The notes below the pieces were generated by a model, which was not told the origin of the DNA, ran no database searches, and was given only the letters and a program-made list of their open reading frames with translations. A stretch of DNA of 32,000 bases from Hyperthermus butylicus DSM 5456 (GTDB lineage Archaea; Thermoproteota; Thermoprotei_A; Sulfolobales; Pyrodictiaceae): contig NC_008818.1 in assembly GCF_000015145.1 (NCBI RefSeq), positions 1,380,001-1,412,000 on the forward strand, read 5' to 3'. A program made the translations under genes and the position numbers. Positions 4,703 through 29,518 of this stretch are shown here, one piece after another. The first letter of the stretch is position 1; each line of letters starts with the position of its first letter.

Positions 4703-5075
4703 ACACCTCTACATAATAAGCAGCGATAATTAACGGTTTGCTCTGGGAGTATGGCCTGCATGTACCTAGCCTGGCCCGAGACAAGAGGAACTAGTCTTAG
4801 GCTGTCCCTCCCTGAGGGCTGGTAGAGTGTCTTCTCCTGCTCGACAGTAATGCTGCAGGTTCAGCTACGCTAGTGTCTCCTAAGGCAGGCTTCTTGCGGC
4901 ACCGGAGTCCTGCACGGTTGCTAGCCATGGTGTAACGGGACGCAGTGGTGTTTGTAACAGTAGTTAATTAACATATCATGGTGTGCCGAAAAATTAGGGT
5001 TGTAGACATAACTAGATGCACGTAATTGTCGAACTATCACGGCCTAGACAAGGGTGTGTGGAGGTACGTCGGGGC

Positions 5076-7583
5076 ATGAAGCGTCTTCTATTAGCTAGCA
5101 TTATAGTTGTGACTCTCCTTCTATCGAGTGCTGCACCAGCCTTCGCGGCTCAGTTTGGCGATGAGCTGGTAGCTAAGGTTCAGGAGCTAATGCAGAGTGA
5201 CAAGGTGAGCCCACAGACAAAGCTGTGTATAAGCTGCCACATACAATACACGCCAGGCATTGTATACGAGTGGGCCAACAGCAAGCATGCAATGTACACG
5301 CCAGCCGAGCTAGCAGAACTCTACAAGGCCATTGGTGCCCCGGAGTGGGCTGACAAGATAGCCGACAAGTTCAAGGACTATCCGTACGTCGTGGGCTGCT
5401 ACGAGTGTCACGGTATGTTCAAGGAGGCCGATAGGCCCGACGTGATCGAGAACCACAACGGCTACAAGATAGTGACCATTGTCACCAGGAAGGACTGCAG
5501 CCAGTGCCACCCCAAGGAGAGCGCAGAGCTGAGCTGGACCTGGCACGCGACCGGTGCTGCTATGTCGCCGTTTAAGCCCTGGTACCAAGGTATTCTGGAG
5601 TGGGCCAAGAGCCAGGGTGCAAACCCGTTCGGCGACGAGCAGGCCAAGCAGCTTTACGAGAAGTACCTCCCACCATACCTGACCAAGCAGCGCGGTGTAG
5701 ATGACGTCAACTGGGACTTCTACAAGGAGATCGCAAAAGCTGTAATGGACTACTTTGAGACCGGCCAGGAGAACGACATAATAAAGATACTCAAGGAAGC
5801 AACCGGTATGATAACACCATATGACATGGACTTCAAGAACTGGATAAGCCCGCTATGGCCGGCCAGCGGCGTGCTCAACACAACAATACTAAAGAAGCTG
5901 AATATCGAGGTAACCGTAACAGCTATGGGTGAACAGACAGCAACAATAAACAACATCATGGAGCACCCAATGTTTAGGAACGGCTACTTGTACCACGCAT
6001 GTTTCGAGTGTCACGGCAGCATAGTTGTTCCATACAAGAAGGAGACCGTTAACATCAACGGCGTACAGGTTAGCAGGGTAGCCCTATGGGGCTGGCCAAA
6101 CAACGGCGCGGCCCGTATAGACCCCGACGGTAGCCTCGGTACATGTACAGCTTGCCACCCGAGACACTTGTTTAGTGTGAAGCAGGCACGCGAGCCATGG
6201 ACCTGTGGCCAGTGCCACCTAGGCTATGACCACCCACACATTGAGATCTATGAGGAGAGCAAGCACGGCAACATCTGGGACGCCTATGGCCATGAGTGGA
6301 ACTGGGAGCAGATACCATGGCGTGTAGGCGTCGACTTCAACGCGCCAACCTGTGCCACATGCCACATGAGCACCCTGGCAGACGCTAATGGCAACATACT
6401 AGTGCCGGGCACTCACGACCTAGCAAGGAGGCTGGTATGGGATCAGATGCACTTCTTCAGCCACCCGAAGCCAGTGATACCAGACAAGCTCCAGGTAAGC
6501 TTGTTCCTTGGCGGCTTTAGCGTGCTAAAGGGCAAGATGGAGGACGTCTACGCAGCAGCCGAGAAGATACCAGAAAGCTCGCCATACAAGTACCCTGTCT
6601 TCATGGGCCTAAAGATCGTCGACGAGGTGAAGCCAGGCGAGCCAGGATTCCCAAGGCTGCTAAAGATAGAGTACACTGGCGAGCTAAAGGAGCACCGCGA
6701 GGAGATGAAGGCTGTATGCAAGCTATGCCATAGCAGCCAGTGGGTGGACAACTTCTTCCGCACAGCTGACCAGAACATCATTGACTATGACGTAGTTGCT
6801 AGGTTTGCATTTAGCCTGCTACAGCTAGCCTGGAATGAGGGCATACACGATAACACGAACCCGCTCGACGAGTACATGGAGATAATGTGGTACTACATCT
6901 GGCACCATGAGGGCCGCCGCTGGAGGAACGGCGTCTTCATGATGGGTCCAGACTTCGCCCACTGGTTTGGCATCGTTGACACTGTCCTGGACAAGCTAGG
7001 CAGGATGACTAACTACCTCTACATAGCGATGAAGGTGAGGCTGCTAGAGACCGAGCTGCAGGCGCTAAAGCAGGCTGCTGCTGGCGCACCATACACGCCA
7101 GAGCTAGCGGCACAGATAGCAGAGCTACAGAAGGAGCTGGAGACCCTCAAGCAGCAGCTAGCAGCTCTAGAGGCGCAGGTGCCAGCGCTAAAGAGCCAGA
7201 TACAGAGCCTAGAGGCTGGCTACAGCAGCGTTGAGGGCGAGCTAGGCACGCTGAAGACTGATGTCAGCACGCTGCTACAGCAGCTAGACGAGCTGAGCAA
7301 GCAGCTGGAGGCTCTAAGCCCACAGGCCAAGGATATACAAGCGCTAGTCTCTAAGATAAAGGAGATAGCTGTGCAGCTAGAGCAGCTGGGCCAGAAGACC
7401 GAGGCAGCGAGCAGCAAGGCTAGCCAGGCGCTAGCAACTGCTGAGGAGATTGGCAGCAAGATCGACGAGCTAAGCAGCAAGATAGACAGTGTATCCGCAA
7501 CGGCCTACACCCTGGGCGCTATAGCGCTAGCAGCTGCTGTAATAGCTCTAGGCTTATCGATACTCTACAGCCGCCGCAGCTAG
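5076..7583 (+). CDS. Octahaem c-type cytochrome of the hydroxylamine oxidoreductase (HAO) family, with a signal peptide, a C-terminal coiled-coil stalk and a TM anchor
   Basis: There are eight CxxCH motifs: CISCH, CYECH, CSQCH, CFECH, CTACH, CGQCH, CATCH and CKLCH. Their contexts are HAO-family-typical: EWANSKHA after haem 1, GTCTACHPRHLFS, CGQCHLGYDHPHIEIYEESKHG, APTCATCHM. I place the start at ATG 5076 (MKRLLLASIIVVTLLLSSAAPAFA|AQ, preceded by GGAGGT) rather than the track's 5016. The C-terminus is ~150 aa of heptad-like sequence, one TM helix, then RRS. Confidence 0.85.
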   Translation: MKRLLLASIIVVTLLLSSAAPAFAAQFGDELVAKVQELMQSDKVSPQTKLCISCHIQYTPGIVYEWANSKHAMYTPAELAELYKAIGAPEWADKIADKFKDYPYVVGCYECHGMFKEADRPDVIENHNGYKIVTIVTRKDCSQCHPKESAELSWTWHATGAAMSPFKPWYQGILEWAKSQGANPFGDEQAKQLYEKYLPPYLTKQRGVDDVNWDFYKEIAKAVMDYFETGQENDIIKILKEATGMITPYDMDFKNWISPLWPASGVLNTTILKKLNIEVTVTAMGEQTATINNIMEHPMFRNGYLYHACFECHGSIVVPYKKETVNINGVQVSRVALWGWPNNGAARIDPDGSLGTCTACHPRHLFSVKQAREPWTCGQCHLGYDHPHIEIYEESKHGNIWDAYGHEWNWEQIPWRVGVDFNAPTCATCHMSTLADANGNILVPGTHDLARRLVWDQMHFFSHPKPVIPDKLQVSLFLGGFSVLKGKMEDVYAAAEKIPESSPYKYPVFMGLKIVDEVKPGEPGFPRLLKIEYTGELKEHREEMKAVCKLCHSSQWVDNFFRTADQNIIDYDVVARFAFSLLQLAWNEGIHDNTNPLDEYMEIMWYYIWHHEGRRWRNGVFMMGPDFAHWFGIVDTVLDKLGRMTNYLYIAMKVRLLETELQALKQAAAGAPYTPELAAQIAELQKELETLKQQLAALEAQVPALKSQIQSLEAGYSSVEGELGTLKTDVSTLLQQLDELSKQLEALSPQAKDIQALVSKIKEIAVQLEQLGQKTEAASSKASQALATAEEIGSKIDELSSKIDSVSATAYTLGAIALAAAVIALGLSILYSRRS

Positions 7584-7625
7584 CCGGAAAAGCTAGCTCC
7601 CCCGAGGAGCTGTTTAGACCGATTA

Positions 7626-7630
7626 TTTTT
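7626..7630 (+). terminator. Oligo-T tract, candidate archaeal transcription terminator after the octahaem cytochrome gene
   Basis: GATTATTTTTACC lies ~40 nt after the stop at 7583. Archaeal RNA polymerase terminates at oligo-dT tracts. Confidence 0.35.
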
Positions 7631-7726
7631 ACCTCCATAACGCGTTACGCTCACCTCCTCTTCCCTCCCCCTAAGCGTATTAGGTGTGGATCCGTCTGCT
7701 TGTTACGGCTTGTGAGGGACTAGTAG

Positions 7727-9244
7727 ATGCAGCTGGCCCGCTACGTGGCGGCTATGGTGTTGTTGGAGTTCATTGTCGGCCACGTGGTTCTTGCCGGTGT
7801 TGTGGAGGGTTTGTTGGCTAGGGACTTCTATAGGCTTGTTGTAGTGTTTAGAGAGCCTCTGGACGGTGATGCATGGAGTGTCTATGTGGCGTTTAGTGGG
7901 CCGGGGGCAGGTGTGAATTGTAGCGGGCAGCTGCGCCCTAACCTGTACTACCTGCAGACCAAGACTATCTCCCGCGGCTTGGTGGTGGCACCACTCTACT
8001 ATGTTCTCAGCAGCATCTGTCCCAGGGTGCTCTCGGAGTTACAGCTCCTAGCTGGAAGTCGTGGCGATGAGCTGCTGGTTGTCGAGCTGGAAGCCCCCCA
8101 GGGCTACTCTGTTAGGAGTGGCATGGACTGGCGCGGGTTCGGCAAAGCTGGCGGTCCCTACACTCTCCCGCTCAGCGCTTTTGTGAGATACTACGTGTTT
8201 GACGGCGTTGTAGTTGCTGGTGAGGAGTATCGGGTGGTTGACGACTCGGCGCTAAACCTTACGGTGGTGGCTCTGCAGGCCTCGAAGGAGACTGTTGAGT
8301 ATACAGTGGAGAGTCTTGTGGCTGTGCGGGATGCGGTTGCAGAGTGGCTTGGCCCTAGCCCCCGCTCGCCGGTTGTACTCGTAGTTGCCGGGCCGGGAGA
8401 GCACCAGTACCTGCCGCCCGGCACCGCCCACAGCATGGGGGGTGTGGTCTACGTCAAGCTGGGTGTGGTGGAGAACCTCCCATGGCTCGTCCACACGGTG
8501 GCACACGAGGCTCTCCACGGTTGGTTCAACCACGGCATGCTCTACGGCGATTTCAGCTTCCAGGAGGCGGCGGCAGAGTTCCTAGCGGTGAAGGCCCTGC
8601 ACGACCAGAGGCCGAGCCTCTACGAGCTTGCAGCTAGCTACCTCGAGTACATGCTGGCAGTGGACGAGCAGTATGCTGTGTGGATGCGTGTCAACGCTGC
8701 GCTATGGCATGCAGGGCTGAGAGCCTGCGGGGAGGACTTGTACATGTACGCGGTCCGGGAACTGTACAATAGGGTTATCACGGATGGGTTCTCGGGGCCC
8801 GTAAGCCTGCTAGACGTGGCCTCGCTAATGGTCGAGAAGGCGTCCACACAGTGCAGGGAGGCCCTAGAAGCGATGATAGGCTGGGTACTCCTAGCACCTA
8901 GGAGTGGGACTAGCGAGTGGCCATACATAGACACCGGCAGCTACAATGCCGGGGCTGGAACATCAGCCATAGACAGCCTTGGTACGCATGTAGAGCCGGT
9001 GGTCCCCTACAACGCCACCCTGCCGGGGATGGAGCAGTCCGAAGCTGGTAGTGGAGAGAGCGGGGCAGCCCAGAGCCAAACGGGGGCACGGGCTCTACAT
9101 CCCGCGGGCCAGCCGGAGCCTACTCCAGGCGCATGTGGGGGATCCGGGAGCCCTACCTACTGGCTAGTGGTTGGCTTCGTGGCAGGGCTGGGGGTAGCCT
9201 CCCTGGCCTGGATTGCTGCTAGGCGGCGTAGGGGGAGGAGCTAG
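7727..9244 (+). CDS. Membrane-anchored extracytoplasmic protein with a gluzincin-like HExxH motif (putative zinc metallopeptidase)
   Basis: 505-aa ORF with a hydrophobic N-terminal signal/anchor (VAAMVLLEFIVGHVVLAGVV). VHTVAHEALHGWFNHGMLYGDFSFQEAAAEFLA resembles the M1/MA-clan HExxH(Q/G)WF...E arrangement. The C-terminus is a Gly/Ser/Pro/Ala-rich linker, a TM helix (YWLVVGFVAGLGVASLAWIAA) and RRRRGRS. Confidence 0.55.
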   Translation: MQLARYVAAMVLLEFIVGHVVLAGVVEGLLARDFYRLVVVFREPLDGDAWSVYVAFSGPGAGVNCSGQLRPNLYYLQTKTISRGLVVAPLYYVLSSICPRVLSELQLLAGSRGDELLVVELEAPQGYSVRSGMDWRGFGKAGGPYTLPLSAFVRYYVFDGVVVAGEEYRVVDDSALNLTVVALQASKETVEYTVESLVAVRDAVAEWLGPSPRSPVVLVVAGPGEHQYLPPGTAHSMGGVVYVKLGVVENLPWLVHTVAHEALHGWFNHGMLYGDFSFQEAAAEFLAVKALHDQRPSLYELAASYLEYMLAVDEQYAVWMRVNAALWHAGLRACGEDLYMYAVRELYNRVITDGFSGPVSLLDVASLMVEKASTQCREALEAMIGWVLLAPRSGTSEWPYIDTGSYNAGAGTSAIDSLGTHVEPVVPYNATLPGMEQSEAGSGESGAAQSQTGARALHPAGQPEPTPGACGGSGSPTYWLVVGFVAGLGVASLAWIAARRRRGRS

Positions 9245-9419
9245 GCGCGACTATGAACAGGATTATCCTCTTGGGTCTGCGGCGGGACTGACTGGCTGAA
9301 GAGGGGAACTTTTTCGGGCTAGTGTTTAATACTCAACAGCTACTGCCACTACCTCGTCATGGCGAAAGTGTAGTGTTAGCAAGTAACAGACCATTGTTGA
9401 CTCCTTGGAGGTGCCTAGC

Positions 9420-10106
9420 ATGTGCCAGTACTCCCGTGCAGAGTGGAGCCTGGCAGCTTTAGCCCTAGCCGCGGTGGTAACACCCCTACTCTACGCTGCA
9501 ACGGCGAGCGCCCAGGACGCCACGCAGCTCTATCCGTGTACCACTTGCCACAATGTCCTAAACCTAACCGGCGACAGGAAGGCAGTGCCATTCCACGGGA
9601 TAGACCTTACCGTGGGGGCACACCGTGGGCTCTACTGCTCCAACTGCCACGTCGCGCCTGTGATGCAGGAGCTTGTTAATGGTGCCGAGGTCTACATTCC
9701 AGGGTTGCACACAATGGAAGAGCTCATGGAGACCAATAAGGTGTGCGCCGTATGCCATCCACGAGAGTTTGCGGACTACCAGTACTTGGTGCATGGTAAC
9801 AAGACCTATGTCTGCCCAGGCGGCAACGTGACGAAGGTTATAGGTTACAAGGGCGTGACCTACGACTTCCACATCTGCAGCGATTACCGAAACCTAGAGA
9901 CGGTACCCGCCAGGGCCTGCGTGGAATGCCACAACCCTCATACACCAACCATGCCACCGGTCAGTATCCTGCCGGTACCCTCTGAGAGGCCAGCACCACC
10001 CGACGAGTCAAGCATTGCATACGGTACAGCAGCTGCTGTTATAGGCGGGCTAATTCTCGCCATAGGCGCCCTCATCCTCCCCCTAGGTCACACGCGTAGC
10101 CGGTAA
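9420..10106 (+). CDS. Tetrahaem c-type cytochrome, signal peptide plus C-terminal TM anchor
   Basis: Four CxxCH motifs (CTTCH, CSNCH, CAVCH, CVECH). The start is placed at ATG 9420, with GGAGGTG 7 nt upstream; the track start is TTG 9405. Signal peptide WSLAALALAAVVTPLLYAATASA|QD. The C-terminus is AAAVIGGLILAIGALILPLG followed by HTRSR. Confidence 0.85.
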   Translation: MCQYSRAEWSLAALALAAVVTPLLYAATASAQDATQLYPCTTCHNVLNLTGDRKAVPFHGIDLTVGAHRGLYCSNCHVAPVMQELVNGAEVYIPGLHTMEELMETNKVCAVCHPREFADYQYLVHGNKTYVCPGGNVTKVIGYKGVTYDFHICSDYRNLETVPARACVECHNPHTPTMPPVSILPVPSERPAPPDESSIAYGTAAAVIGGLILAIGALILPLGHTRSR

Positions 10107-10125
10107 AGCTGGGGTGGAGGCCGGG

Positions 10126-11194
10126 ATGGTGGAGAGGAGCAGCCCAGGAAAAAACAGTACCCAGGTTGATCGGTCTAGGAGGGAATTCCTCAAGGCAGCT
10201 ACTGTTGCAGCTAGCGTCTCGGCAATCTCCTTCCTAGCTGTGAACCGGGACGAGCTGGATAGAGTCCTGGTGCCGGTTAAGCTTGGGGACCTCCTAGCTG
10301 AGGCTGAAGAGGGCGAGAGCGAACTCGAGCGCAGGGCTAGGAGGAAGGAGGAGGAGCTGAGGAAGTGGTGCCAGGCGGAGGCCGAGAAGATATGTGGCGA
10401 GTACGGTGAGGACTCTGACGCTTGTAGGGAGGCTAGGAAGCGCTGCGAGATGATAAGGGTTAAGGCTACGGGGCCCCGGAAGGGAGCCCGCTACGCCATG
10501 GCCCTTGACATTAACAAGTGTATAGGGTGCCGCCGCTGCGCCTACGCTTGTGTCATGGAGAACAATCAGGCGAGAAACCTGGGGATAGAGTGGATCAGAG
10601 TACTAGAGCTGCCCAGGGAGGGGGAGCTAGAGCTACTTCACGCCGACATGTACTACGCCGAGGCCCCCAAGGAAGGACAAGGTCTACGTGCCAGTAGCAT
10701 GTATGCACTGCGAGAACCCGCCGTGTGTCATGGTTTGCCCGGTTAGGGCTACCTGGAAGGAGCCCGATGGCATTGTAGTGATTGACTATGACCGCTGCAT
10801 AGGCTGTAGATACTGTATAACAGCATGTCCCTACGGTGCACGCCGCTTCAACTGGGCCAAGCCCTATGTGCCAGTGACAGAGCTAAACCCCAACATGCAC
10901 ATACTCGGCAACGTGCCACGCCAGATACACGTCGTGGAGAAGTGTACCTGGTGCATACAGCGCACCCGCGATGGCGGCGTACCGGCGTGCGTCGAGGTCT
11001 GCCCTGTTGGTGCGAGAGTCTTCGGAGACCTCAACGACCCTGAGAGTCCGATACGCCGCGTCCTAAGAGAGTACGGTGGCTTCGTATTGAAGCCCGAGGC
11101 TGGCACCAAGCCCAGATTCTTCTACTTCTTTGGCCCCAAGCGTACACCTCCACGCGAATCCACGGAGACAAGGGCAGCTCAGGGACAAGGGTAG
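10126..11194 (+). pseudogene. Tat-exported 4x[4Fe-4S] ferredoxin-type subunit (NrfC/PsrB/ActB2-like), interrupted by a +1 frameshift at a C5 run (10664-10668)
   Basis: The first frame (to 10746) carries the twin-arginine signal SRREFLKAATVAAS and cluster motif CIGCRRCAYAC. The second frame, open from 10631, carries CMHCENPPCVMVCP, CIGCRYCITACP and CTWC..ACVEVCP. Deleting one C from GAGGCCCCCAAGG restores a continuous ...YYAEAPRKDKVYVPVACMHCENPPC... The start could be GTG 10114 or ATG 10126, the latter with GGAGG upstream. Confidence 0.75.
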
Positions 11195-11218
11195 ACCTCT
11201 CCGAGGGGGTGTGCCTGG

Positions 11219-12475
11219 ATGACGCGTAGCGGTGGCTTCCTAGACACGATAAAGTACGTTATCCGGGAGGCGCTACTAACTGGTAGCCCACGCTACTACA
11301 TGGCATTCTTGGGCCTGCTGCTGGTAGCAGCGTACGGCATCTACCTCTGGATATTCGTCCAGCATGCCCCGATATTCCTCGGCAAGGATGAGGGAGGCCT
11401 AATACTCACCAACCTCAGCGACACTGTGCCATGGGGGATCTACATATCGTTCTTCGTGTTCTGGGTCGGAGTGGCAGCGGCAGGCATAATGTTCGGCATA
11501 GCAGCATACGTATTCGGGGACAAGGAGTTCAAGAAGGTAGCGGTACTCGGCGAGGTACAGGCGGTAGCAGCAATAATAACCGTGCTGACACTAATCATGG
11601 TCGATGTCGGTAGGCCGTTCCGCGCGCTAATACTGCTACCGCAGCTGCCAAACCTAAAGTCGATGCTAGACTGGGACTTCATAGTGCTAACCACCTACCT
11701 AGCACTAAATCTGATAGGTGTGCTGGTAACAGTGCACTACTACCGCCAGGACAAGCCGCTACCCAAGAAGTTCATAGTGCCATTCATAATCATAGCGGCG
11801 CCCTTCGCGATAGGTATACACACTGTGACAGCATTCATATCGCAGGCACTAACAGCTAGGCCTATCTGGAACAGCCCACTACTCGCACCACGCTATGTTG
11901 CAACAGCATTCGCTAGTGGACCAGCCATACTGCTAATAGCACTATACCTCGCCGAGCGCTACATAGACGGTTTCAAGGTAGACTTCAGCGTCTACAAGAA
12001 GACTCTATACGTAATAGTAGGCTCGCTGATAGTAGGCCTATACTTCACCTTCAGCGAGATTCATGAGATATTCTGGTACACCACTGAGTCTATGAAGAAG
12101 GCGCAGGCTGAGGTGCTATTCTTTGGCTACCACGTGCCATACCTAGCGATACTAGTGTGGCTCTGGATAGGCCTAGGCATAGCGGCAGTAATCCTAGGCA
12201 TACTGCCACGGGTACACAATACGAAGAGGGGCATACTCTTAGTCTCGGCAATAACGGTGATAGCAGTGGTGGCAGAGAAGACGATGACGATAATCATACC
12301 AGGATACATACCAGGAAGCCTTGGCGAAATACGCCCATACTACCCGACACCGCTAGAGATAGGTATAACGATCGGCGTACACGCGCTAGGCATACTAGTC
12401 TACCTGCTACTCGCAAGGCCAGCGCTGAAAGCAGTGATAACCCACTACTACAAAGGCGGCAGTGTACACCACTAA
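11219..12475 (+). CDS. NrfD/PsrC/ActC-family polytopic membrane subunit (quinone/quinol-interacting)
   Basis: 418-aa highly hydrophobic ORF with about 10 predicted TM helices. The family-typical N-terminal block is ...TNLSDTVPWGIYISFFVFWVGVAAAGIMFG. It sits immediately downstream of the NrfC-like gene, which is the usual pairing. Confidence 0.85.
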   Translation: MTRSGGFLDTIKYVIREALLTGSPRYYMAFLGLLLVAAYGIYLWIFVQHAPIFLGKDEGGLILTNLSDTVPWGIYISFFVFWVGVAAAGIMFGIAAYVFGDKEFKKVAVLGEVQAVAAIITVLTLIMVDVGRPFRALILLPQLPNLKSMLDWDFIVLTTYLALNLIGVLVTVHYYRQDKPLPKKFIVPFIIIAAPFAIGIHTVTAFISQALTARPIWNSPLLAPRYVATAFASGPAILLIALYLAERYIDGFKVDFSVYKKTLYVIVGSLIVGLYFTFSEIHEIFWYTTESMKKAQAEVLFFGYHVPYLAILVWLWIGLGIAAVILGILPRVHNTKRGILLVSAITVIAVVAEKTMTIIIPGYIPGSLGEIRPYYPTPLEIGITIGVHALGILVYLLLARPALKAVITHYYKGGSVHH

Positions 12476-12643
12476 CAACAGCCATGAAGTGGAAAACCCT
12501 ACTCCCCTCACGGTGTTTCTAGATGTTTTCACACGCGTACAACGCCGCGATGAATACCGAAAACATACACATGGTGGGCTCTCGGGTAGAGTGTAGGGGA
12601 TTCCCCAAAGGGAGAGGCAGGCCAGGATGGGGGTGGGCACTGC

Positions 12644-13246
12644 ATGCGTGACCGCGCCTCGGCGCCTGTGTTACTTACAGCGGTACTCGTACTAGCACTA
12701 GCATCCATAGGTGCTGCCGCACTATCCGCGGAGGAGGCTGAGAAGCTATTCCAGTCGAGCGGTTGCACGGGCTGCCATAACGGTGTAGTAGCGCCAGACT
12801 TTCAGGGCACCATAGCAGTCATTAGGGAGTGGGCATCAAAATATGAGACCCTCGACGAGGCTGTGGCTGCAGAGGCTCCCAACTTTAAGATGTTTAATAA
12901 TGCTAAGAGCTGGGATGAGCTAATGAGCTCGATGCCGGGAATAACACCTGAGCTCAAGGATTACTTTGCAAGGGTTTTCGAGGAGGCAAAGACTGGAGCA
13001 GTACCAGTCCAGGAGCAGCCAGCAGGTGAAACCACCGAACAGCCAGTGCAGCCGACAACACCGGTGGTGACGCAACCAAAACCCAAGCCGGCGGTTAACG
13101 TCACGAAACTGCCAGAGGTATCGGCTCCAAACCCCTCAGCGCAGGCAGAATCACTAGTAAAGACAGGCCTACCGGCAGGCGTAGCAGTCCTCATAACAGC
13201 AATAGTAATCCTGGCAGCCTTCACAAAGAAGGCCAGGCAGCACTAA
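12644..13246 (+). CDS. Monohaem c-type cytochrome (class I-like) with a Pro/Thr-rich linker and a C-terminal TM anchor
   Basis: Signal peptide (VLLTAVLVLALASIGAAALSA). A single CTGCH lies near the mature N-terminus and a candidate distal Met is in MSSMPG. The linker is PVQEQPAGETTEQPVQPTTPVVTQPKPKP, followed by the TM helix GLPAGVAVLITAIVILAAF and KKARQH. Confidence 0.8.
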   Translation: MRDRASAPVLLTAVLVLALASIGAAALSAEEAEKLFQSSGCTGCHNGVVAPDFQGTIAVIREWASKYETLDEAVAAEAPNFKMFNNAKSWDELMSSMPGITPELKDYFARVFEEAKTGAVPVQEQPAGETTEQPVQPTTPVVTQPKPKPAVNVTKLPEVSAPNPSAQAESLVKTGLPAGVAVLITAIVILAAFTKKARQH

Positions 13247-13296: not shown

Positions 13297-15156
13297 CTAG
13301 GCTTTGTATATGTGGAGCCTTCTGTTGTCGATTTGTATCGTTGCCAGCTCCAGTACCTTGTCGGGATCGTTTTCTGCTGGGTAGTCTAGACTGATTATGG
13401 ATGCACCCAGGCCCTTCAAGGCTTCCAGCAGTTTTGCCACGGCTCTAGGTAGGAGGTATGCATATGCCGTGTCTGCCCGGCGCGGCCTGAACACGGCCAG
13501 GTCGGATACTACAGTGTGCGCCAGGGGGTTGTCTCTCAGCCTTCTATGGGCCTCTACTGCTAAGGTCTCGTCGAGCTCTAGGCAGATGGTGTGCATTCCC
13601 CGTTCCGCGGCCTTGGCTGCCACGGTGGCTGTGCCGCAGCCCGGCTCATAGTATATGGGCTGCCGGTTTCCGGCCCTAGCTGCAGCCATGGCTTCCACAA
13701 GGTCTAGTATCGTGTCCACGATATCGCTGCTTGTTGGAACGTAGGGCGAGAGGCTACCCGCAGCATCCATTATGGAGGCAAAGGCGTCGTAGAGTAGTTG
13801 TATTGTCCTACCAAGCTCTAGCTCGTCCAGTACAAGCTCATCTGATTCCATGGGGTCGGTGGGAAACCGCTCCTCCCCACCCTTGCGTGTCGGTGGCCTG
13901 TCTCTCGTCATCCCCCCACCCCCTGGCTGTTCCGTGTCTGCTAGCTTCCCTAAGAGCTTCTGGAGAGCACCTCCCTCTACTATGCGGCGTAGCTTGTTCT
14001 CGTGCACCCGGTAGGCTTTGCGGATCCAGCTGGGCTGGCCCTCCAGGCTCCCACTGCATGCTAGGCCTATGCCACAAGCCTTGTCCATAAACTCGGTCCA
14101 GGAGAGACTCTCGCCCCTCGCCGATGAGAGGTAGTGGTACTCGTGGAGCGTAGGCCGTACCGCCACCGGCCGCCGAAAACCGAGCCACTCTAGGCAGCAC
14201 GTCTTGCCAGGCTGGTACCAGCGTGTCAAGCCCGGAGCATCGGGGCGGAGCGTGTCCTTGCAGGCGGAGTATACCGCGCCATACCGGGCTGCTAGTGCTG
14301 CGAGCGCAGTGTGCATCTGGAGCCTCCATGGACTCGTGGGGTGGAGGAGGGGCTCCCGGCCAGGCTCCTCGCCGAGCTGGTAGGGCTCCCAGTTCCACCT
14401 CCTCCAGTCCATGCCTAGCAGTTTGTAGAGCCTCTCAAGGCCCTCCCTCGTCTCGCGCAGCGGCTCACCTATGACGCCCCGGGCGCCCCTCTCCAGGGCC
14501 TCCTCCGCCGCCCAGAGGTGCTCCTCCTCTAGGCCGGGTATGAGCGGCTGAACCCTCACCACCACTGGCACCCTGTGGCCCACGAGGTGCTCGAGCGCTT
14601 CCAGCCTCGCCTCAACTGGTGGGGCTCCAGGCTCGAGCAGTACCGCTACCCGGCTACTGTAGGGTATGGTGAGCTGCACGATGAGGAGGCCGTGATCAGC
14701 AAGGGCTAGGAGGAGAGACTCTAGCTCGGGGTCGCGGCGCGGATCCCCCTTTGTATTCAGCACTATTGGCACCTTGTGGCGGAGCGCGATACGCAGCAGC
14801 CTCTTAATCACAGGGTGGAAGGGCCCTCTAGGCGGCTGGAGCGGGTCGCTGAGCGTGGCGAGTCGGAAGAATGGCTTCGGCTCCCTTAGCCTCTGGGCAA
14901 GCTTCTCGAAGAGCTTTGGAAGCCAGGGCTTCGCCTGCGACTTGCCGTGGGGGCCACGGTACCAGCGAGCGTAGCAGTAGACGCAGCCATAGCTGCAGGT
15001 CGTGAAGGGTTCCAGACGCAGTATAGAGTAGCACAGCGAGGAGATATAGTTGCTAGGCTTGATTACAAACTCTAGCCACTCAACCACATCATACCAGCCC
15101 GGTATGAGAATAGCAGCACCATAGCTAATTAGGCTATAAGTCTGGCAACAAGTCAA
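13297..15156 (-). CDS. Fusion protein: SplB/COG1533-like radical SAM domain (N-terminal) plus class I SAM-dependent methyltransferase-like domain (C-terminal)
   Basis: 619-aa ORF. The N-terminal LRLEPFTTCSYGCVYCYARWY contains the CxxxCxxC radical SAM cluster motif in the context typical of the 'DNA repair photolyase' SplB-like group. The C-terminal ~170 aa has Rossmann motif I (IYYEPGCGTATVAAKAA) followed by an acidic beta-2 end (HTICLELDE). Confidence 0.75.
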   Translation of the reverse strand: MTCCQTYSLISYGAAILIPGWYDVVEWLEFVIKPSNYISSLCYSILRLEPFTTCSYGCVYCYARWYRGPHGKSQAKPWLPKLFEKLAQRLREPKPFFRLATLSDPLQPPRGPFHPVIKRLLRIALRHKVPIVLNTKGDPRRDPELESLLLALADHGLLIVQLTIPYSSRVAVLLEPGAPPVEARLEALEHLVGHRVPVVVRVQPLIPGLEEEHLWAAEEALERGARGVIGEPLRETREGLERLYKLLGMDWRRWNWEPYQLGEEPGREPLLHPTSPWRLQMHTALAALAARYGAVYSACKDTLRPDAPGLTRWYQPGKTCCLEWLGFRRPVAVRPTLHEYHYLSSARGESLSWTEFMDKACGIGLACSGSLEGQPSWIRKAYRVHENKLRRIVEGGALQKLLGKLADTEQPGGGGMTRDRPPTRKGGEERFPTDPMESDELVLDELELGRTIQLLYDAFASIMDAAGSLSPYVPTSSDIVDTILDLVEAMAAARAGNRQPIYYEPGCGTATVAAKAAERGMHTICLELDETLAVEAHRRLRDNPLAHTVVSDLAVFRPRRADTAYAYLLPRAVAKLLEALKGLGASIISLDYPAENDPDKVLELATIQIDNRRLHIYKA

Positions 15157-18957: not shown

Positions 18958-20559
18958 GTGATTATTCTCGCCTTGTTCGTAGTACTCCTTCTTCCTGCTA
19001 TAGCTGAAGCCTTTACAAGGCTTGCAAACTATACCGCTGCCCCGGGCATAGTATTAGAATTCAAGTTCCTAAAGCCTACAGCGAAGGGTTTCACCACCTG
19101 GGAGGAGCCAGCTAGAGGAGGAGACATCATAGCAATGATTCACGTTGAAGCTGTAGCCCCAGCAGGTATACAGGGAGACTTTATCCCGCTCTACACCGGC
19201 GCCTACCACGGTAAGCCTATCTACCTACCCTCTAGCGGTATGCTTGGCGATATTGCAAAGGCCTGGGTTAAAGAATACACTAGGAGGGGGAGCAACCCGG
19301 ACACAGTATACTCTGGGCTACTGGTTTTTGTTTCAGTGCTAAACCGTACAGCCCTAAAACACCATGATATGAGAAATGCAGTAATCTACTCCACCGTTGA
19401 CGTGGTGAGCTACAAGCCAGCAGCAATAGCTGCAGGGAAAACATTGAAGTATACGATAAACGTCATAGTAGATCGTAAGCATAGGAATTTAGAGTATAGA
19501 GTCGAAGAGATGAAGGGGCTCTTAGAGACCATGGCGGTAAAAATGGCATCCGACAAGCCGAGATCTACAAATATGCAGGGCTATCAGCTCCAGCCTCAGA
19601 ACCCAGAGGAGTCATGGTACTGTGACGAATTCTCCGAACCAATTGCATCATACTGCTGGCGTCGAGAACTCTACATTGCACCGGGGCATCTAACTGGTAT
19701 CCTACCATCAGACTATTTCAGATGGGAAAACGGTAAGCTATACGTCAAGACACCGCTAATGATAGTCTACAACAAGTACTCCTACTCCGACACAATCACG
19801 GCTAACATAAACCTTGGGTCGACTAATGCTGCAATCTCGATATATGCAACCTTTGGTGCTGGTGAAGGACTCGTAGAGTTATTCAGGGGTGAAAAGGAGA
19901 GCGTACCGGAATTGACTATATGGAAGTCTGGGGATAGGATCTGGGGCGGCGAGAAATACTACTACTCTAGAGCAGAAACAGTTCCCCCCGAACACTGGTG
20001 GTGGGCATGGATATGGGGTAGGCCGGTCTTTGCAGTCTATAGGGAGTACTACTGCCTCTTAGACTGCGAGCCTCTAAGCAATAGCTATGTAATTGCAGCT
20101 GTAACAGATGTTATAACCGAGGGAAGTATTATAGAGGGGGGTGAAGAAAAGAGCAAGCCCGCAGAGCCGCTTATGAGCTACCTCTTTGAGGGAATCGAGT
20201 TAACTAGCGTTGGCACGCTCAATCCGGGCGATTCGCTACCTCTAGGCTCAATATTTAACACCTTTGATACTTGTGGTGCCGACTTTGAGATAGGTATACC
20301 TGTAGGAGCTATTGTTGGCGGGCTCCTGGGGGGCCCTGAGGGCGCCGCGATAGGCTCGGTTTTCGGTGTCTCGGTCTCGGCTGAGGGAGCTAAGATCTAC
20401 ATACTTGGTGGTATAGAGAATGAGGGCAACTATAATGTGCCAGAATATATATGGGTTGGAGCTAGCAAGCTCAAGTATAGGCATGAGCAGTGCTGGCTCT
20501 TCTTCTGTCAGACATGCTATTACAATGTACTGATAGGCATCTACGTGGAGGCTAGGTGA
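18958..20559 (+). CDS. Secreted hypothetical protein (533 aa) with a Gly-rich hydrophobic C-terminal segment
   Basis: GTG start with a Sec-type signal peptide (MIILALFVVLLLPAIAEA|F). It lies in AT-richer DNA, is rich in aromatic residues (EHWWWAWIWG), and has a C-terminal glycine-zipper-like GIPVGAIVGGLLGGPEGAAIGSVFGV followed by a Cys cluster (CWLFFCQTC). No family recognised. Confidence 0.6.
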   Translation: MIILALFVVLLLPAIAEAFTRLANYTAAPGIVLEFKFLKPTAKGFTTWEEPARGGDIIAMIHVEAVAPAGIQGDFIPLYTGAYHGKPIYLPSSGMLGDIAKAWVKEYTRRGSNPDTVYSGLLVFVSVLNRTALKHHDMRNAVIYSTVDVVSYKPAAIAAGKTLKYTINVIVDRKHRNLEYRVEEMKGLLETMAVKMASDKPRSTNMQGYQLQPQNPEESWYCDEFSEPIASYCWRRELYIAPGHLTGILPSDYFRWENGKLYVKTPLMIVYNKYSYSDTITANINLGSTNAAISIYATFGAGEGLVELFRGEKESVPELTIWKSGDRIWGGEKYYYSRAETVPPEHWWWAWIWGRPVFAVYREYYCLLDCEPLSNSYVIAAVTDVITEGSIIEGGEEKSKPAEPLMSYLFEGIELTSVGTLNPGDSLPLGSIFNTFDTCGADFEIGIPVGAIVGGLLGGPEGAAIGSVFGVSVSAEGAKIYILGGIENEGNYNVPEYIWVGASKLKYRHEQCWLFFCQTCYYNVLIGIYVEAR

Positions 20560-20781: not shown

Positions 20782-21153
20782 ATATGGATGTATGGTGTCT
20801 GTTCTAGGTGCTCTTGTATTGAATGGCTAGGGTCTAGCATCGGGCTGAGCAATTTTATTTCATCGCTGCGTTGCCCGATGTTTAGGCTGGAACCCTTCAC
20901 CGGATGCAGCTTCGACCGTATCTACTGCTATGCGAGATGGAGGCTGTGAACTCATGGATCTCTATGGATCTCTAGGGTTAAGCGGTACGTGGCGCGGTAG
21001 TTTGAGAAGGTGGCCGCGAGGCTGCCCAGTGATATGTCTAGGCCGCTCTTTGGACCTGCAGTGTTCAGCGTCTCTTCTAACACTTTAACGGCAGAGTGCC
21101 AGGTATTGTTAAGTCACTACTCCGGATTGCATGAGGGTTTCCTTCATGGTTGA
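20782..21153 (+). pseudogene. Decayed N-terminal fragment paralogous to the radical SAM fusion gene at 13297-15156
   Basis: My translation gives EWLGSSIGLSNFISSLRCPMFRLEPFTGCSFDRIYCYARW, against EWLEFVIKPSNYISSLCYSILRLEPFTTCSYGCVYCYARW in the intact gene. Further on, FEKVAARLPSDMSRPLFGPAVFS aligns with FEKLAQRLREPKPFFRLATLS. There are in-frame stops at 20947 (TGA) and 20998 (TAG), the middle cluster Cys is lost (GC to DR), and nothing remains beyond ~130 codons. Confidence 0.65.
20954..20973. repeat. Perfect 10-bp tandem duplication (ATGGATCTCT x2) inside the radical SAM pseudogene
   Basis: Read directly from the sequence: ATGGATCTCT at 20954-20963 and again at 20964-20973. Confidence 0.9.
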
Positions 21154-26042: not shown

Positions 26043-26325
26043 ATGGTTACCGTGTAAAGTGATAAGCTCGACGAGGTAAGCTTCTACCTCCAAACAATCC
26101 GCCGTGCTAGGGACGAAGCTGTCCGCAAAGTGTTCGAGGATGTTGCACGGGAGGAGAAAATCCATATAGGCGAGTGCGTTCGGCTTTTACTACTACGCTG
26201 TTATTGCTCTCCTAAAACAGCTTGACCCCGAGCAAGCCCAGGCGTTTGAGGAAGGATTACGGGAAGTAGCCGAACTCCTAGACGAACATGCAGCCAGGGG
26301 CGTCAGCGGCAGCAAGCAGAGCTAG
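26043..26325 (+). pseudogene. Decayed ferritin-like gene of the encapsulated-ferritin (EncFtn)-like type
   Basis: ATG 26043 is followed by an in-frame TAA at codon 5. It then reads DKLDEVSFYLQTIRRARDEAVRKVFEDVAREEKIHIGE, and after a frameshift another frame reads LLKQLDPEQAQAFEEGLREVAELL...*. The EEK-H-GE...LL..LDP......EG..EV pattern is what I recall for EncFtn/Flp-type small ferritin-like proteins. The family call is from memory. Confidence 0.45.
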
Positions 26326-26397: not shown

Positions 26398-27015
26398 CTA
26401 GCTGGTCGCCTCCACGGGTATCTCTGCAACGGTATAGTAGTTGTCGCTTATCCGTATTAGCACGTGTATAGTGTACTGGTAGCCACCCACGGGACCATAT
26501 TCAACTCTCACGGTCACCGGGATCCCGGGCTCAAGCACACCTACATCATACAGCCTCAGTGCCACACAGTTCTGGATGAAGCTCGAAAGTTGATAGTAGC
26601 CATTCCCATAGGCTATGTAGACGTTGCGGCAGGGCGCGGTGATGCTGGCTAGTTGATTCCAGCCCGTGGGACTACTTGCATCTGCTATCTCGGAGGCTAG
26701 TATGTAGACATTAAAATCATAGTTTGAAGGCGGTGCTATCCTGGACGTGTTCCTGTCGAACGCTATAACGGTCACGTAGAGCCTCACTGGAGCTTCTAAA
26801 GCCTCGCCATAAATGTTTACGACTGTTACATTATCCTCGCCGTAGACAGGTACCGCGCTTATAGCAGCAGATGTCCTCGCGATAAGCGATGCTATCTCAT
26901 TACCCGTACGCTGTGCCGCGATAAGCGGAGTAAGGTAGTAGATAAGACCATAAGCTATAACCAGAGCCACGCCAACCATTATAGCGGTGGAAATCAATTC
27001 AGCTTGACCACGCAT
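26398..27015 (-). CDS. Hypothetical extracellular protein with an archaeal class III (type IV pilin-like) signal peptide
   Basis: The start is placed at ATG 27015. The track's 27144 start would overlap the upstream gene by 100 nt. The N-terminus MRGQAELISTAIMVGVALVIAYGLIYYL is a short basic leader, then G-Q/A, then a ~20-residue hydrophobic helix. The rest looks beta-rich. Confidence 0.6.
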   Translation of the reverse strand: MRGQAELISTAIMVGVALVIAYGLIYYLTPLIAAQRTGNEIASLIARTSAAISAVPVYGEDNVTVVNIYGEALEAPVRLYVTVIAFDRNTSRIAPPSNYDFNVYILASEIADASSPTGWNQLASITAPCRNVYIAYGNGYYQLSSFIQNCVALRLYDVGVLEPGIPVTVRVEYGPVGGYQYTIHVLIRISDNYYTVAEIPVEATS

Positions 27016-27043
27016 AGTCACAAGCACCTCGTCCCTACGTCCC

Positions 27044-29467
27044 CTAACGGTGTAGGAACCACAAGCTAGTCCACTCAATGGCAACTGTGAAGTCCATATC
27101 GTTAATAGTGTTATATGCTGTCCAGCCATTAGTTTCAAGCTCACTTACGTAGGGATCGTTGAAACCCAGCACAACATAGAATGTCTCGTTCCTATCTGGC
27201 ACTGCCAGGTAGACGGCATCGGTTAGGAAGTTGGTGTTAGGAGGCCATGTATCCTCAACGTCGTCGAGCTCCTGGTAGATGTACTCTCTACTCGAGAATA
27301 CATAGCCAGTACTATTTATCAGGTAGACTCCGAACAAGCCCTTACGGGGATCGTCAACATCCCCCGTGTCTGAGCCCGAATTATCGTGGAAGTAGTAGCG
27401 AAGCTGCATCGACACTTGCGCCACCTCGCTGCCGTTGACCTCATATCCTATAAATACGACGTATATCGTGGCTGTAGTATAGTCAATACAGCCTCTAGCA
27501 TTAAAGTCCGATAAAATTGTGCCATCCGGCAACCTATACATACTTCTATATATACTTGTTGCATAGCCCACTATATCGTCGTAAGTGTAGTCCCATCCGA
27601 TTCCAGTCTCCTCAGTCATAAACACTAACTCCGTTAACCCGTTCGTATCAACATCCACGAAGGCTATGTATGGGTCAAGACCACCAGTTTCATCTACCTG
27701 AAACTCATAAAGTAACACCTTCACGTCTTTTGCATACAAGGTGCCAATAACATAATTGTTACCTTTGGGACCGGATACGGCACCGTAAAGGCCACTATAA
27801 CCTTCCACGTAGTAGAAGCCAGCGTAGTAGTAAAAGCCGAACGCTTTAGTATCGTTCAGCCAGCCACTTGTGCGGTAATCATAGAGTTCAAGGAAGTGCG
27901 CCTTCTGGGCAGCCAGTTTCACGCGGAATGGATATGGAGTCAAGCCGCTGATATCGTTGCTTTCGTCGTCTATAATTGGACTGGCTACAACTACTAGATC
28001 TCCTGCTGTGCCATAACCTGTTGAATCTATGATCACACCGGTACGGTTAACGTAATCAGAGCCTAGTGTCACGTTTAAGTCATAAACCTTCATCACGTAT
28101 GTAACCCGCCACTGACTCGTAGCGGATCCTTCGACTTTTAAGCGGGCAAGCCAGCAGCCACTCCCACGAAATACGACGCCGTTCCATGATGTTTTATTCT
28201 CTGGAGGACACCATATCGAGATAGGCCATCCTTCCTGATCTATGCCGCGAACAAACAGCCCTACACCATTGAGATCTAGAATTGCTCGCTCAATAGTAAA
28301 GCTTAGTTCTTCGTTCTCAGCGCCAATGTTGTAGTAGCTCGTTTCAACCGGTGCTTTTGCCAGTAGTGATGTGAGGGAACCAGTGGAACCTAGTGGGCAC
28401 ACATTCTTCATGTAGACATTGTTATCTCCGCCCACGTAGAGGCCGGTGAAGCATAGCTCCCAGCTTCCATCTGGCTTCTTGGCAACAATTGTGCCAAGGT
28501 GTACACCATCATCGGTGAAGCTTGGCCTCCATGGAATCCAGGTATATCCGGCATAGAGTAGCGAGATGCTATACTTTGACTCGGTATAGCTGCCGCCCAT
28601 ACCGCCAAGCACAAAACTGCCTGCAAACGGCATCATAGAGTCTATATAGACAAGGTCATAGACCTTCTCCCCGCTATACTTGTAGGCACCAAGCGCCCAG
28701 TACCCGATATCATCGTTTGTTTCAATGGTATGGTATCCCTTATCGGTTGCGCAGAGTGCCCTTGTAATACCGCTATCTGCTATTGTATCCTGGCTCTTTT
28801 TTGGCTCTGCAAGGTTTGTAGTGACTGCTATATCGGGGTTTTGCAATAGATCATCCAGACTTGTGTAATTAACGAATATTAGGTAGTATGCTTGTACAGC
28901 TCCAGCAACCTCTGCGTATGTCGTCTGGCTTTCGGCGAGTTTTAGTACTGGTATGTAGCTGCCTTCAACCAAGAATATCCCTAGCAGCTCGCCGTTAGTG
29001 ATGATTACCTTCACATACTCGCCAGGTTTGATTGCTATACCACCGTAGTTAAGTATCCAGGAGCTAGGTGATGGTGACACCTTAAACCTAGTGGAGCCAC
29101 TAATACCGCAGCCTAGGGTGCAGTTACCTGCCTTCACTAAATGGATATAGCCATTGTCGTCACGTACTATTAGTAGGTACACAATGTGAAGTCGTGAATC
29201 TTTGTTCGTTAATGTGTATGTTTTAGTTCCACCGCTAACCGTCACAGAGATGTCCAGCTTAGGTATGGCAGTCCTGGCCTTCTCAAATAGCGTAGATACG
29301 AGTCTGCTATGTGTAACATTGCTGCTAGCATGAAGGTATATGATGAACGGTATTAGCACAGATATCAGGAACGTAATTATGATTATTGCTGCAATGGTAC
29401 CCGATATACCCCTAGTAGGCCTTGTAAGTTTCGGCAATGCCAGCCACCGAGATACCCTTAGCTGCAC
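27044..29467 (-). CDS. Large (807 aa) extracellular protein with an archaeal class III (type IV pilin-like) signal peptide; putative surface filament or adhesin component
   Basis: The N-terminus ...PKLTRPTRG|ISGTIAAIIIITFLISVLIPFIIY fits the [KR]G-[ISA] prepilin-peptidase site followed by a hydrophobic helix. There is an alternative in-frame TTG start at 29437. The body is Tyr/Gly/Thr/Val-rich with many N-x-S/T sequons (NVT, NCT, NYT, NKT, NRT, NDT, NGS, NST, NET). The DNA is AT-rich; one 60-nt line I hand-counted was 27/60 GC. Confidence 0.7.
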   Translation of the reverse strand: MQLRVSRWLALPKLTRPTRGISGTIAAIIIITFLISVLIPFIIYLHASSNVTHSRLVSTLFEKARTAIPKLDISVTVSGGTKTYTLTNKDSRLHIVYLLIVRDDNGYIHLVKAGNCTLGCGISGSTRFKVSPSPSSWILNYGGIAIKPGEYVKVIITNGELLGIFLVEGSYIPVLKLAESQTTYAEVAGAVQAYYLIFVNYTSLDDLLQNPDIAVTTNLAEPKKSQDTIADSGITRALCATDKGYHTIETNDDIGYWALGAYKYSGEKVYDLVYIDSMMPFAGSFVLGGMGGSYTESKYSISLLYAGYTWIPWRPSFTDDGVHLGTIVAKKPDGSWELCFTGLYVGGDNNVYMKNVCPLGSTGSLTSLLAKAPVETSYYNIGAENEELSFTIERAILDLNGVGLFVRGIDQEGWPISIWCPPENKTSWNGVVFRGSGCWLARLKVEGSATSQWRVTYVMKVYDLNVTLGSDYVNRTGVIIDSTGYGTAGDLVVVASPIIDDESNDISGLTPYPFRVKLAAQKAHFLELYDYRTSGWLNDTKAFGFYYYAGFYYVEGYSGLYGAVSGPKGNNYVIGTLYAKDVKVLLYEFQVDETGGLDPYIAFVDVDTNGLTELVFMTEETGIGWDYTYDDIVGYATSIYRSMYRLPDGTILSDFNARGCIDYTTATIYVVFIGYEVNGSEVAQVSMQLRYYFHDNSGSDTGDVDDPRKGLFGVYLINSTGYVFSSREYIYQELDDVEDTWPPNTNFLTDAVYLAVPDRNETFYVVLGFNDPYVSELETNGWTAYNTINDMDFTVAIEWTSLWFLHR

Positions 29468-29510
29468 CTAAATCCTAATTCTAAGAGAGAGGTTAGTATT
29501 TGAGTACTAG

Positions 29511-29518
29511 TATAAAAC
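29511..29518 (-). promoter_or_regulatory. Candidate TATA box for the pilin-like two-gene operon
   Basis: The minus strand reads GTTTTATACTAG, with TTTTATA ~44 nt upstream of GTG 29467. Confidence 0.35.

Follow-up and report, generated by a model that had tools for sequence, protein, structure and literature searches.

What would a hyperthermophilic archaeon do with two adjacent genes whose products both begin like a type IV pilin, when one product is about 800 amino acids (aa) long and the other about 200? The question is raised by a locus of Hyperthermus butylicus DSM 5456 within a 32,000-nucleotide (nt) stretch of its chromosome (contig NC_008818.1, positions 1,380,001 to 1,412,000; hereafter the window, whose own numbering is used for all coordinates). 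We propose, with a probability of roughly 50%, that the large product is a modular minor pilin or adhesin and the small product its pilin partner, both processed by PibD and assembled by a machine that is encoded elsewhere, with a pilus tip or a short stalk as the likeliest site. This reading, to which the same estimate applies as a whole, treats the two genes as one transcription unit. An initial annotation of the window had offered three options, namely a filament with a giant subunit, a tip adhesin with its minor pilin, and a bindosome-like assembly. The second of these fits best, as judged from the modular helix-plus-beta models, the obligate small partner and the linkage to a pilus operon in distant homologues, whereas a filament built mainly of 800-aa subunits found no support and the large protein was rejected as a major filament subunit. 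Membership in any known family is not established, because curated pilin models missed the proteins and no homology to known adhesin modules was found. The genes and their signals are as follows.

27044 to 29467, minus strand: large gene, 807 aa from the GTG at 29467 in the list of open reading frames (ORFs)
29437, minus strand: alternative TTG start of the large gene, giving 797 aa, with a Shine-Dalgarno-like GGTG at 29445-29448, 7 nt upstream
27016 to 27043, minus strand: intergenic spacer of 28 nt, with GAGGTG at 27025-27030, 9 nt upstream of the small gene's ATG
26398 to 27015, minus strand: small gene, 205 aa from ATG in the ORF list
29511 to 29517, minus strand: TTTTATA, TATA-box-like, preceded by the purine-rich GAGGAAAGG, which resembles a factor B recognition element (BRE); read from the sequence

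The two minus-strand ORFs, their 28-nt spacing and the TTTTATA box are thus all present in the sequence, as had been described. The box lies 44 nt upstream of the GTG start and 74 nt upstream of the TTG start, and is the putative promoter of the two-gene unit. In a public protein collection the large protein begins at the TTG at 29437 (797 aa); the predicted mature protein is identical whichever of the two starts is used.

The case for pilin-like proteins begins at the N-termini, where the following elements are found.

29408 to 29467, minus strand: basic leader of the large protein, ending in TRPTR-G, with the predicted prepilin-peptidase site after Gly20 (807-aa form)
29333 to 29407, minus strand: uncharged hydrophobic tract ISGTIAAIIIITFLISVLIPFIIYL of the large protein, residues 21-45, predicted to be the N-terminal half of the alpha-1 helix
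26935 to 27006, minus strand: hydrophobic tract of the small protein, residues 4-27, starting with Gln at the predicted +1 position

Both proteins carry a basic leader, an R-G pair and then an uncharged hydrophobic stretch of about 22 residues (TRPTRG-ISGTIAAIIIITFLISVLIPF in the large protein, MRG-QAELISTAIMVGVALVIAYGLI in the small one), which bears out the class III-like leader and hydrophobic helix first noted for them, and the motif is conserved across the family. Kyte-Doolittle windows above 1.6 occur only at the N-terminus in either protein; the tract of the large protein peaks at up to 3.07 and is helical in the AlphaFold2 (AF2) model. R-[GA] directly precedes the hydrophobic tract in 18 of 18 full-length large homologues, in whose alignment (A1) the Arg at -2, R9, is invariant and position -1 is always G or A, and the tract itself follows the consensus [ILV]S.[TA][IL]AG[LI]I..[TS]F. 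More widely, 59 of the 65 large-family members of at least 480 aa have a class-III-like N-terminus, the exceptions being mostly truncated fragments. The N-termini of the small family (12 orthologues) match [RK][GAST]-Q-[AS]-[EN]-[LVI]-[IL]-[SA]-T, with an invariant Gln at +1. Since Gln is invariant at +1 in the homologues, and in view of archaeal pilin precedent, the small protein is likely cut after Gly3 (MRG/QAE) rather than after Gln4; of the two cleavage sites first suggested, that of the large protein (TRPTRG) is also the one predicted here, and that of the small one (MRGQ) probably does not hold.

Against profile libraries these N-termini gave weak signals, which point toward the pilin N-terminal families TIGR02537, UpsB and Pilin_N. 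The small protein scored 14.3 bits with TIGR02537 (archaellin/pilin N-terminal domain), below its cutoff of 20, and a distant family member (P0027) scored 16.3 bits with PF07790, below the cutoff of 25.2; the large protein had no match to PF07790 Pilin_N or TIGR02537 in the Pfam and NCBIfam searches. Profile-profile alignment (hhalign) with neighbouring UpsA-like pilins gave probabilities of 12-86%, depending on the subfamily. A crude rule for class-III-like N-termini also picks out about 5% of the unrelated ORFs at the loci compared, chiefly Sec signal peptides or true pilins, so that two adjacent matches are unlikely to arise by chance. The same false-positive rate, together with the lack of any pilin hidden Markov model (HMM) over threshold, nonetheless lends some weight to the idea that the N-termini are uncleaved signal anchors and that the proteins are envelope glycoproteins with a type II membrane anchor (a component of the surface layer or of a sheath, say, and its partner), with no role in a type IV pilus. 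We consider this unlikely: the basic plus G/A motif sits exactly at the start of the tract and is conserved across lineages that are only about 20% identical elsewhere, and the hydrophobic tract runs into a helix of about 50 residues, as in pilins. A composition rich in Thr, Ser, Tyr and Gly with few Cys, Met and His, the glycosylation sequons, the fast evolution and the low-GC (guanine-plus-cytosine) cassette are also typical of surface-layer genes and would suit such anchors, as would the housekeeping neighbourhood of the pair in Pyrodictiaceae. The distant homologues, on the other hand, are linked to a pilus operon and comprise three paralogues of about 500-560 aa, unlike the known crenarchaeal surface-layer gene sets (SlaA/SlaB).

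Structure prediction of the single proteins likewise yields a pilin-like helix-plus-beta architecture for both. The AF2 model of the small protein, made from its single sequence, has a predicted local distance difference test (pLDDT) score of 82 and a predicted template-modelling (pTM) score of 0.72, with a helix at residues 2-51 and a 12-strand sandwich; from its N-terminus, MRG followed by QAELISTAIMVGVALVIAYGLIYY, the protein would thus form a pilin-like 'lollipop' of a long N-terminal helix and a beta-sandwich head. The model of the large protein, made from an alignment of 18 sequences (pLDDT 69.9, pTM 0.67), has a helix at residues 9-56, a confident beta domain at 61-163 and further beta domains that are split by low-confidence loops. 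Its predicted layout is therefore a class-III-like N-terminus, a helix of about 50 residues, a pilin-like beta domain and a beta-rich ectodomain of about 600 aa. In Foldseek searches both models locally match the type IV pilus subunit of Pyrobaculum calidifontis (8fk7_A, probability 0.98-1.0), and the large model also locally matches jelly-roll ligand-binding domains. Glycosidase and phage-tail matches of the large model are generic for beta-rich proteins and were set aside.

Ranked by E-value, the Foldseek matches of the large model are headed by glycoside hydrolases and lectin-like jelly rolls, and surface enzymes and binding proteins with class III signals do exist. Both facts would suit an extracellular enzyme or solute-binding protein that uses its class III signal for surface retention and merely happens to lie next to the small gene. 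We think this very improbable, as those global matches have template-modelling (TM) scores of at most 0.16, no catalytic or binding domain was found by Pfam, NCBIfam or PDB profile search, and the small partner, itself pilin-like, is present in every locus examined. A solute-binding protein was rejected: no solute-binding domain or family was found in Pfam or NCBIfam, and no ATP-binding cassette (ABC) transporter is adjacent in the window or in the Pyrodictiaceae loci. A large protein of the bindosome's solute-binding type is accordingly not supported, since the substrates of the Sulfolobales bindosome that bear class III signal peptides (GlcS, AraS, TreS) have solute-binding folds and lie in ABC-transporter operons, and neither is the case here.

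Word-indexed homology searches with the large protein, either as a single sequence or as a 29-sequence profile, returned the query alone, and detection of the family therefore needed an exhaustive HMMER search, which covered 1.84 billion representatives and found 82 relatives. About 20 of these are full-length (750-874 aa, 31-37% identity) and about 50 are shorter (500-680 aa), the common part being the C-terminal ~250 residues. Pfam and NCBIfam hold no family for the large protein, the small protein or eight relatives, and a PDB profile search with the large protein gave nothing significant. The large family is thus absent from Pfam, NCBIfam and the PDB, and we found no published description, curated model or structure of it. 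The giant pilin-like protein with a small partner, first described as unusual, forms a real pair but not a singular one, belonging as it does to a family of at least 82 sequence clusters. At 9.4% G, 8.3% T and 7.6% Y, with few Cys, Met and His, and with 10 N-x-S/T sequons where 5.5 are expected (mean 12.2 against 6.7), the large protein agrees with the first description of an 807-aa protein rich in sequons and in Tyr, Gly and Thr. Its family shares the motifs D-x-D-x-N-G-x-x-E, YFHDN-G-D, YQ-L---EDT[WY]PP and DPY and, at the C-terminus, a strand whose last residue is usually Arg. The most conserved pattern is the following.

27629 to 27655, minus strand: DVDTNGLTE, a DxDxNG..E loop in the conserved C-terminal domain of the large protein

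Within this loop D595, D597, N599, G600 and E603 (797-aa numbering) are invariant in alignment A1. A class of Dx[DN]xDG calcium-binding loops has been described (PMC3123361), which the loop resembles, and we take this as a resemblance only.

Conservation of the pair is a further line of evidence, and a survey of its phylogenetic distribution found a small gene adjacent in Pyrodictiaceae, in the one Desulfurococcales locus and in hot-spring metagenomes alike. In Pyrodictiaceae a small gene of 199-241 aa directly follows the large gene on the same strand in 10 of 10 full-length loci, the two being at most 44 nt apart or overlapping by up to 27 nt. In the Desulfurococcales locus (L013), from a metagenome-assembled genome (MAG), a 212-aa equivalent of the small protein precedes and overlaps a 577-aa large-family member. 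Another homologue of the small protein, with 33% identity and the same N-terminus (RGQAELIST...), lies downstream of a truncated gene that is the C-terminus of a large-family member. Among the hot-spring metagenomes, whose loci were located with a subfamily profile, the small gene is adjacent in 32 of 32. There the module often begins with a paralogue of about 390 aa, which is followed by a small protein of about 220 aa and by large paralogues of about 540, 500 and 555 aa, three in tandem; each of these proteins has a class-III-like N-terminus, and the reading frames overlap or abut. The Pyrodictiaceae and metagenome small families are homologous over their full length (hhalign probability 98.2%, E 3e-14), and the Pyrodictiaceae large family shares its C-terminal domain with each of the three metagenome paralogue classes (hhalign probability 99.2-99.6%). 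Pairing of small and large genes is obligate, the two being adjacent wherever the flank was readable. Adjacency in all three locus sets and profile homology, both taken from sequence comparison, thus define the conserved unit as a small pilin-like protein with one to three giant pilin-like proteins. Two divergent pairs occur per genome in some cases (L007 and L011 on one Pyrodictium MAG contig; L006 and L012 in one MAG), the second copy (L011, L012) adjoining genes for a hydantoinase and a metallophosphoesterase; the large gene of L011 is apparently split into ORFs of 140 and 585 aa by a frameshift or sequencing error.

If the two proteins are pilus components, their machine must be sought elsewhere. 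The window holds no assembly ATPase, platform or PibD-like gene, as had been reported for it, and no T2SSE, T2SSF or Peptidase_A24 domain was found in its ORFs of at least 110 aa. A link to such machinery does appear in the metagenomes, where a pilus ATPase, a platform and two pilin genes stand beside the module in 6 of the 32 loci (L017, L023, L025 and L038-L040). This block comprises a T2SSE ATPase with a best match to FlaI/BasE, a T2SSF platform with a best match to UpsF/BasF, and two UpsA-like pilins of about 135 aa, one of which passes TIGR02537. In L023 it forms part of a run of 11 co-directional genes with overlaps or short gaps, in the order ATPase, platform, pilin, pilin, two unknowns and five class-III genes; in L038-L040 the pilus block and the class-III module are convergent. 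Eight further metagenome loci end at two linker genes, c2 and c3, short of where any pilus genes would lie, and about ten have no pilus genes within the available flanks.

The linker genes (5690-8036 in L023; also in L017, L024-L030 and L038-L041) recur between or beside the pilus operon and the class-III module. One encodes a multi-pass membrane protein of about 400 aa and the other a soluble protein of about 346 aa, neither with a Pfam or NCBIfam match, and their products may be further components of the system.

For H. butylicus itself, the census by Makarova et al. (2016, PMC4858521) gives three clade-4 pilus ATPases and no archaellum, and it places A24 peptidases in nearly all ATPase-bearing archaeal genomes; H. 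butylicus thus probably does have a prepilin peptidase.

A different use of the same signals deserves consideration here, namely that the proteins are processed by a prepilin peptidase but form no long pilus, making up a short pseudopilus or bindosome-like stalk, or an envelope-spanning accessory like the archaellum stator FlaF/FlaG, with the small protein as anchor or stalk and the large one as a head at the level of the surface layer. This seems to us possible, if doubtful. The N-terminal and structural evidence applies to it equally and the module is self-contained and usually away from pilus machinery genes, but in L023 the five paralogous class-III genes directly follow ATPase, platform and pilins, an arrangement more suggestive of a minor-pilin set. 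Large proteins that form no filament but bear class III signals are well documented among the sugar-binding proteins of Sulfolobales and have recently been found widely (bioRxiv 10.64898/2026.04.22.720090), and PMC4858521 treats FlaG, FlaF and PilA as one family; here, however, there is neither a solute-binding domain nor an ABC transporter neighbour, nor a match of the FlaF/FlaG type in Pfam or NCBIfam.

Several observations weigh against a modular minor pilin with a small partner. Neither protein reaches the threshold of a curated pilin HMM in Pfam or NCBIfam, and the Pyrodictiaceae proteins align with the neighbouring bona fide pilins at a weak hhalign probability of 12-37%. At -1, Thr or Ser is found in two of the small orthologues, and the basic residue at -2 is missing from one. 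The model of the large protein is of only moderate confidence and has no global neighbour in Foldseek searches of the PDB and BFVD (TM-scores of at most 0.20). The window lacks genes for a pilus ATPase, platform or peptidase, and none is found within 10 kb in the 13 Pyrodictiaceae/Desulfurococcales loci, where the neighbours are RIO1, a KH protein, deoxycytidine triphosphate (dCTP) deaminase, biotin ligase, acetyl-CoA carboxylase, cytochrome bd and pyruvate kinase. Finally, predicted class III proteins in the Pyrodictium delaneyi proteome were undetected, untagged or unchanged (PMC8105010).

Bacteria are known to have modular minor pilins at the pilus tip, together with a small partner that stabilises them (PMC9934059), and the modular pilins of Streptococcus sanguinis, PilC with PilA, and PilB (PMC9934059, PMC8179133), offer a close architectural parallel. 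In them too, extra domains are grafted onto a pilin module, made of a long helix and a small beta domain, behind a class 3 signal peptide, and the small pilin PilA is encoded alongside PilC, which in bacteria it binds and stabilises; an adhesive, lectin-like beta head such as theirs is predicted from the model for the archaeal protein. In its predicted architecture, a pilin moiety with grafted domains (AF2) and an obligate small pilin-like partner, the archaeal pair resembles a modular pilin, although no sequence or fold homology to the bacterial proteins was detected. Unlike the latter, which measure about 450-490 aa, the archaeal protein has 750-874 aa; the Pyrodictiaceae genes lie away from any pilus machinery; and processing would be of the archaeal PibD type, with Gln at +1 in the partner and no Glu5.

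Another bacterial counterpart is the priming or tip complex made up of minor pilins plus PilY1 (PMC8833165, PMC3248442), in which several minor pilins and one large calcium-dependent adhesin are co-encoded, separate from the major pilin. The five class-III genes of the hot-spring homologues similarly adjoin ATPase, platform and pilins, and the DxDxNG loop recalls the calcium site of PilY1 (PMC3248442). PilY1, however, is not a pilin, having a Sec signal and a beta-propeller, whereas here the large protein itself has a pilin-like N-terminus. We rejected the large protein as a PilY1 homologue, for it has no Pfam match and no propeller among its Foldseek matches, and the loop is all that the two have in common.

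Among archaea, the closest counterparts are the large, all-beta, FlaFind-positive components arCOG02911, arCOG05616, arCOG07037 and PilY-like, which occur at crenarchaeal pilus loci and have been proposed as minor pilins or adhesins (PMC4858521; bioRxiv 10.64898/2026.04.22.720090). The large family could not be placed in any arCOG among those listed in the census tables of PMC4858521 as far as these were available, which is no proof of absence; because that census was locus-centred, a stand-alone pair would escape it.

We thus favour a large product that is a modular type IV pilin-like glycoprotein and a small product that is its pilin-like partner, working in the following way. An N-terminal hydrophobic helix would insert both proteins in the membrane, the PibD-type prepilin peptidase of the cell would trim both after the R-G motif, and a type IV pilus ATPase/platform machine from elsewhere in the genome would take them up. 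Both would be low-abundance (minor) subunits, the small one pairing with the large one and stabilising it. The beta-rich ectodomain of about 600 residues, with its jelly-roll-like parts and calcium-type DxDxNG loop, would then make up an adhesive head, borne either by the tip of a pilus or by a short pilus-like stalk.

How the pair came to its place is a separate question. GC content is 0.468 in the large gene and 0.501 in the small gene, compared with 0.573 +/- 0.031 in the other ORFs of the window, where two other stretches are also near 0.48-0.49. In the window as in six Pyrodictiaceae loci the pair lies next to RIO1 and KH genes, apart from local inversions. For those flanking genes, which encode a RIO1 kinase and a KH-domain protein, the nearest relatives come from Pyrodictiaceae MAGs, among them 'uncultured Hyperthermus', with 72-81% protein identity. 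Identity between genomes is 32-48% for the pair compared with 70-87% for flanking genes. In L004 (cassette at 9950-12902) GC drops from about 0.62 to 0.42-0.47 exactly across the two genes and then recovers, and GC at third codon positions is 0.45 in the pair against 0.80 in its flanks. The low-GC trend is repeated in the window and in L003, L005, L008 and L010, and the cassette is sharply bounded in the higher-GC genomes. Searches with tblastn found no homologue of the pair in plasmids and phages and no sign of a mobile element, nor did tblastn in the window find remnants of the dCTP deaminase, biotin ligase or cytochrome bd genes that flank the pair elsewhere.

Horizontal acquisition had initially been proposed on the grounds of composition and neighbouring pseudogenes. 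A simple, recent, one-off event is contradicted by the position next to RIO1/KH that the pair keeps across Pyrodictiaceae; the anomalous low GC is nevertheless real and recurs in orthologous loci, for which reason in-situ replacement of the cassette may still have occurred. A cassette that is low in GC and divergent yet syntenic suggests either repeated in-situ allele replacement or a gene-specific codon constraint. Fast divergence, glycosylation sequons and atypical composition are as expected of exposed surface proteins.

Of the neighbouring pseudogenes, one proved real, a rubrerythrin/EncFtn-like remnant downstream of the small gene.

26043 to 26325, plus strand: rubrerythrin/EncFtn-like remnant, whose repaired translation scores 28.7 bits with PF02915

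Two lesions disrupt the remnant: codon 5 is an in-frame TAA, and 25 nt, GCGTTCGGCTTTTACTACTACGCTG, are inserted at 26176-26200; when these 25 nt are removed, ...HIGEFIALLKQLDPEQAQAFEEG is restored. The insertion is the perfect reverse complement of 27820-27844 in the large gene, which encodes the conserved AFGFYYYAG, and may be a templated repair scar. Alternatively, given its position some 200 nt downstream, transcription that reads through from the operon would give an RNA with a 25-nt complement to its own coding region.

Other features of the window lie apart from the pair.

3619 to 3932, plus strand: archaeal signal recognition particle (SRP) RNA (Rfam RF01857, 146 bits)
5016 to 12475, plus strand: clustered genes for an 855-aa multihaem cytochrome c that has a coiled coil at its C-terminus, an unknown protein of 505 aa, another multihaem cytochrome, two 4Fe-4S proteins and an NrfD-type membrane subunit
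18958 to 20559, plus strand: 533-aa ORF with an N-terminal signal-like sequence, many Trp, Tyr and Cys, no Pfam match and low GC (about 0.48)
20818 to 20940, plus strand: fragment of 41 codons that shares 46% identity with the N-terminus of a radical S-adenosylmethionine (SAM) family with an intact member at 13297-15156

The SRP RNA overlaps the ORFs at 3236-3655 and 3672-4058, so that neither is likely to be a gene. The multihaem cytochrome cluster is unusual for a crenarchaeon and recalls the respiratory complex proposed for iron reduction in Pyrodictium delaneyi (PMC8105010). A segment of about 5.8 kb at 18.5-24 kb (the unknown ORF, a major facilitator superfamily transporter and a nucleotidyltransferase) is absent between the c21 gene and RIO1/KH in Pyrodictium loci and looks like an insertion or variable region. 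The 41-codon piece is probably a gene fragment or pseudogene.

To conclude, large proteins with class III signals and predicted archaeal minor pilins or adhesins are already known as concepts (PMC4858521; bioRxiv 10.64898/2026.04.22.720090). What is new here is an unannotated family, its unusual size, its obligate small partner, its usually stand-alone site and the recurrent low-GC, hyper-variable cassette in which it lies. One could go further and imagine, though we would give it little credence at present, that the small and large proteins are an autonomous, exchangeable surface-recognition cassette of Thermoproteota, in which the calcium-loop ectodomain on its pilin stalk sets the binding partner, whether the surface of a mineral or of sulfur or cells of its own kin, the latter as in species-specific Ups aggregation. 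Were that so, the low-GC, hyper-divergent yet syntenic locus would reflect repeated in-situ allele replacement between lineages, and this would be the first tip-adhesin system of an archaeal pilus, one with antigen-like population dynamics.

To our knowledge, experiments have not yet characterised a tip complex or a set of minor pilins for any archaeal pilus. As a source of the binding specificity of such pili, the family of large and small proteins is a concrete and widely conserved candidate, with defined motifs and with some homologues inside a pilus operon. It also gives annotation pipelines a protein family that has so far gone unannotated, and offers a clear example of a hyper-variable, low-GC surface cassette that is fixed at one chromosomal position in hyperthermophiles.

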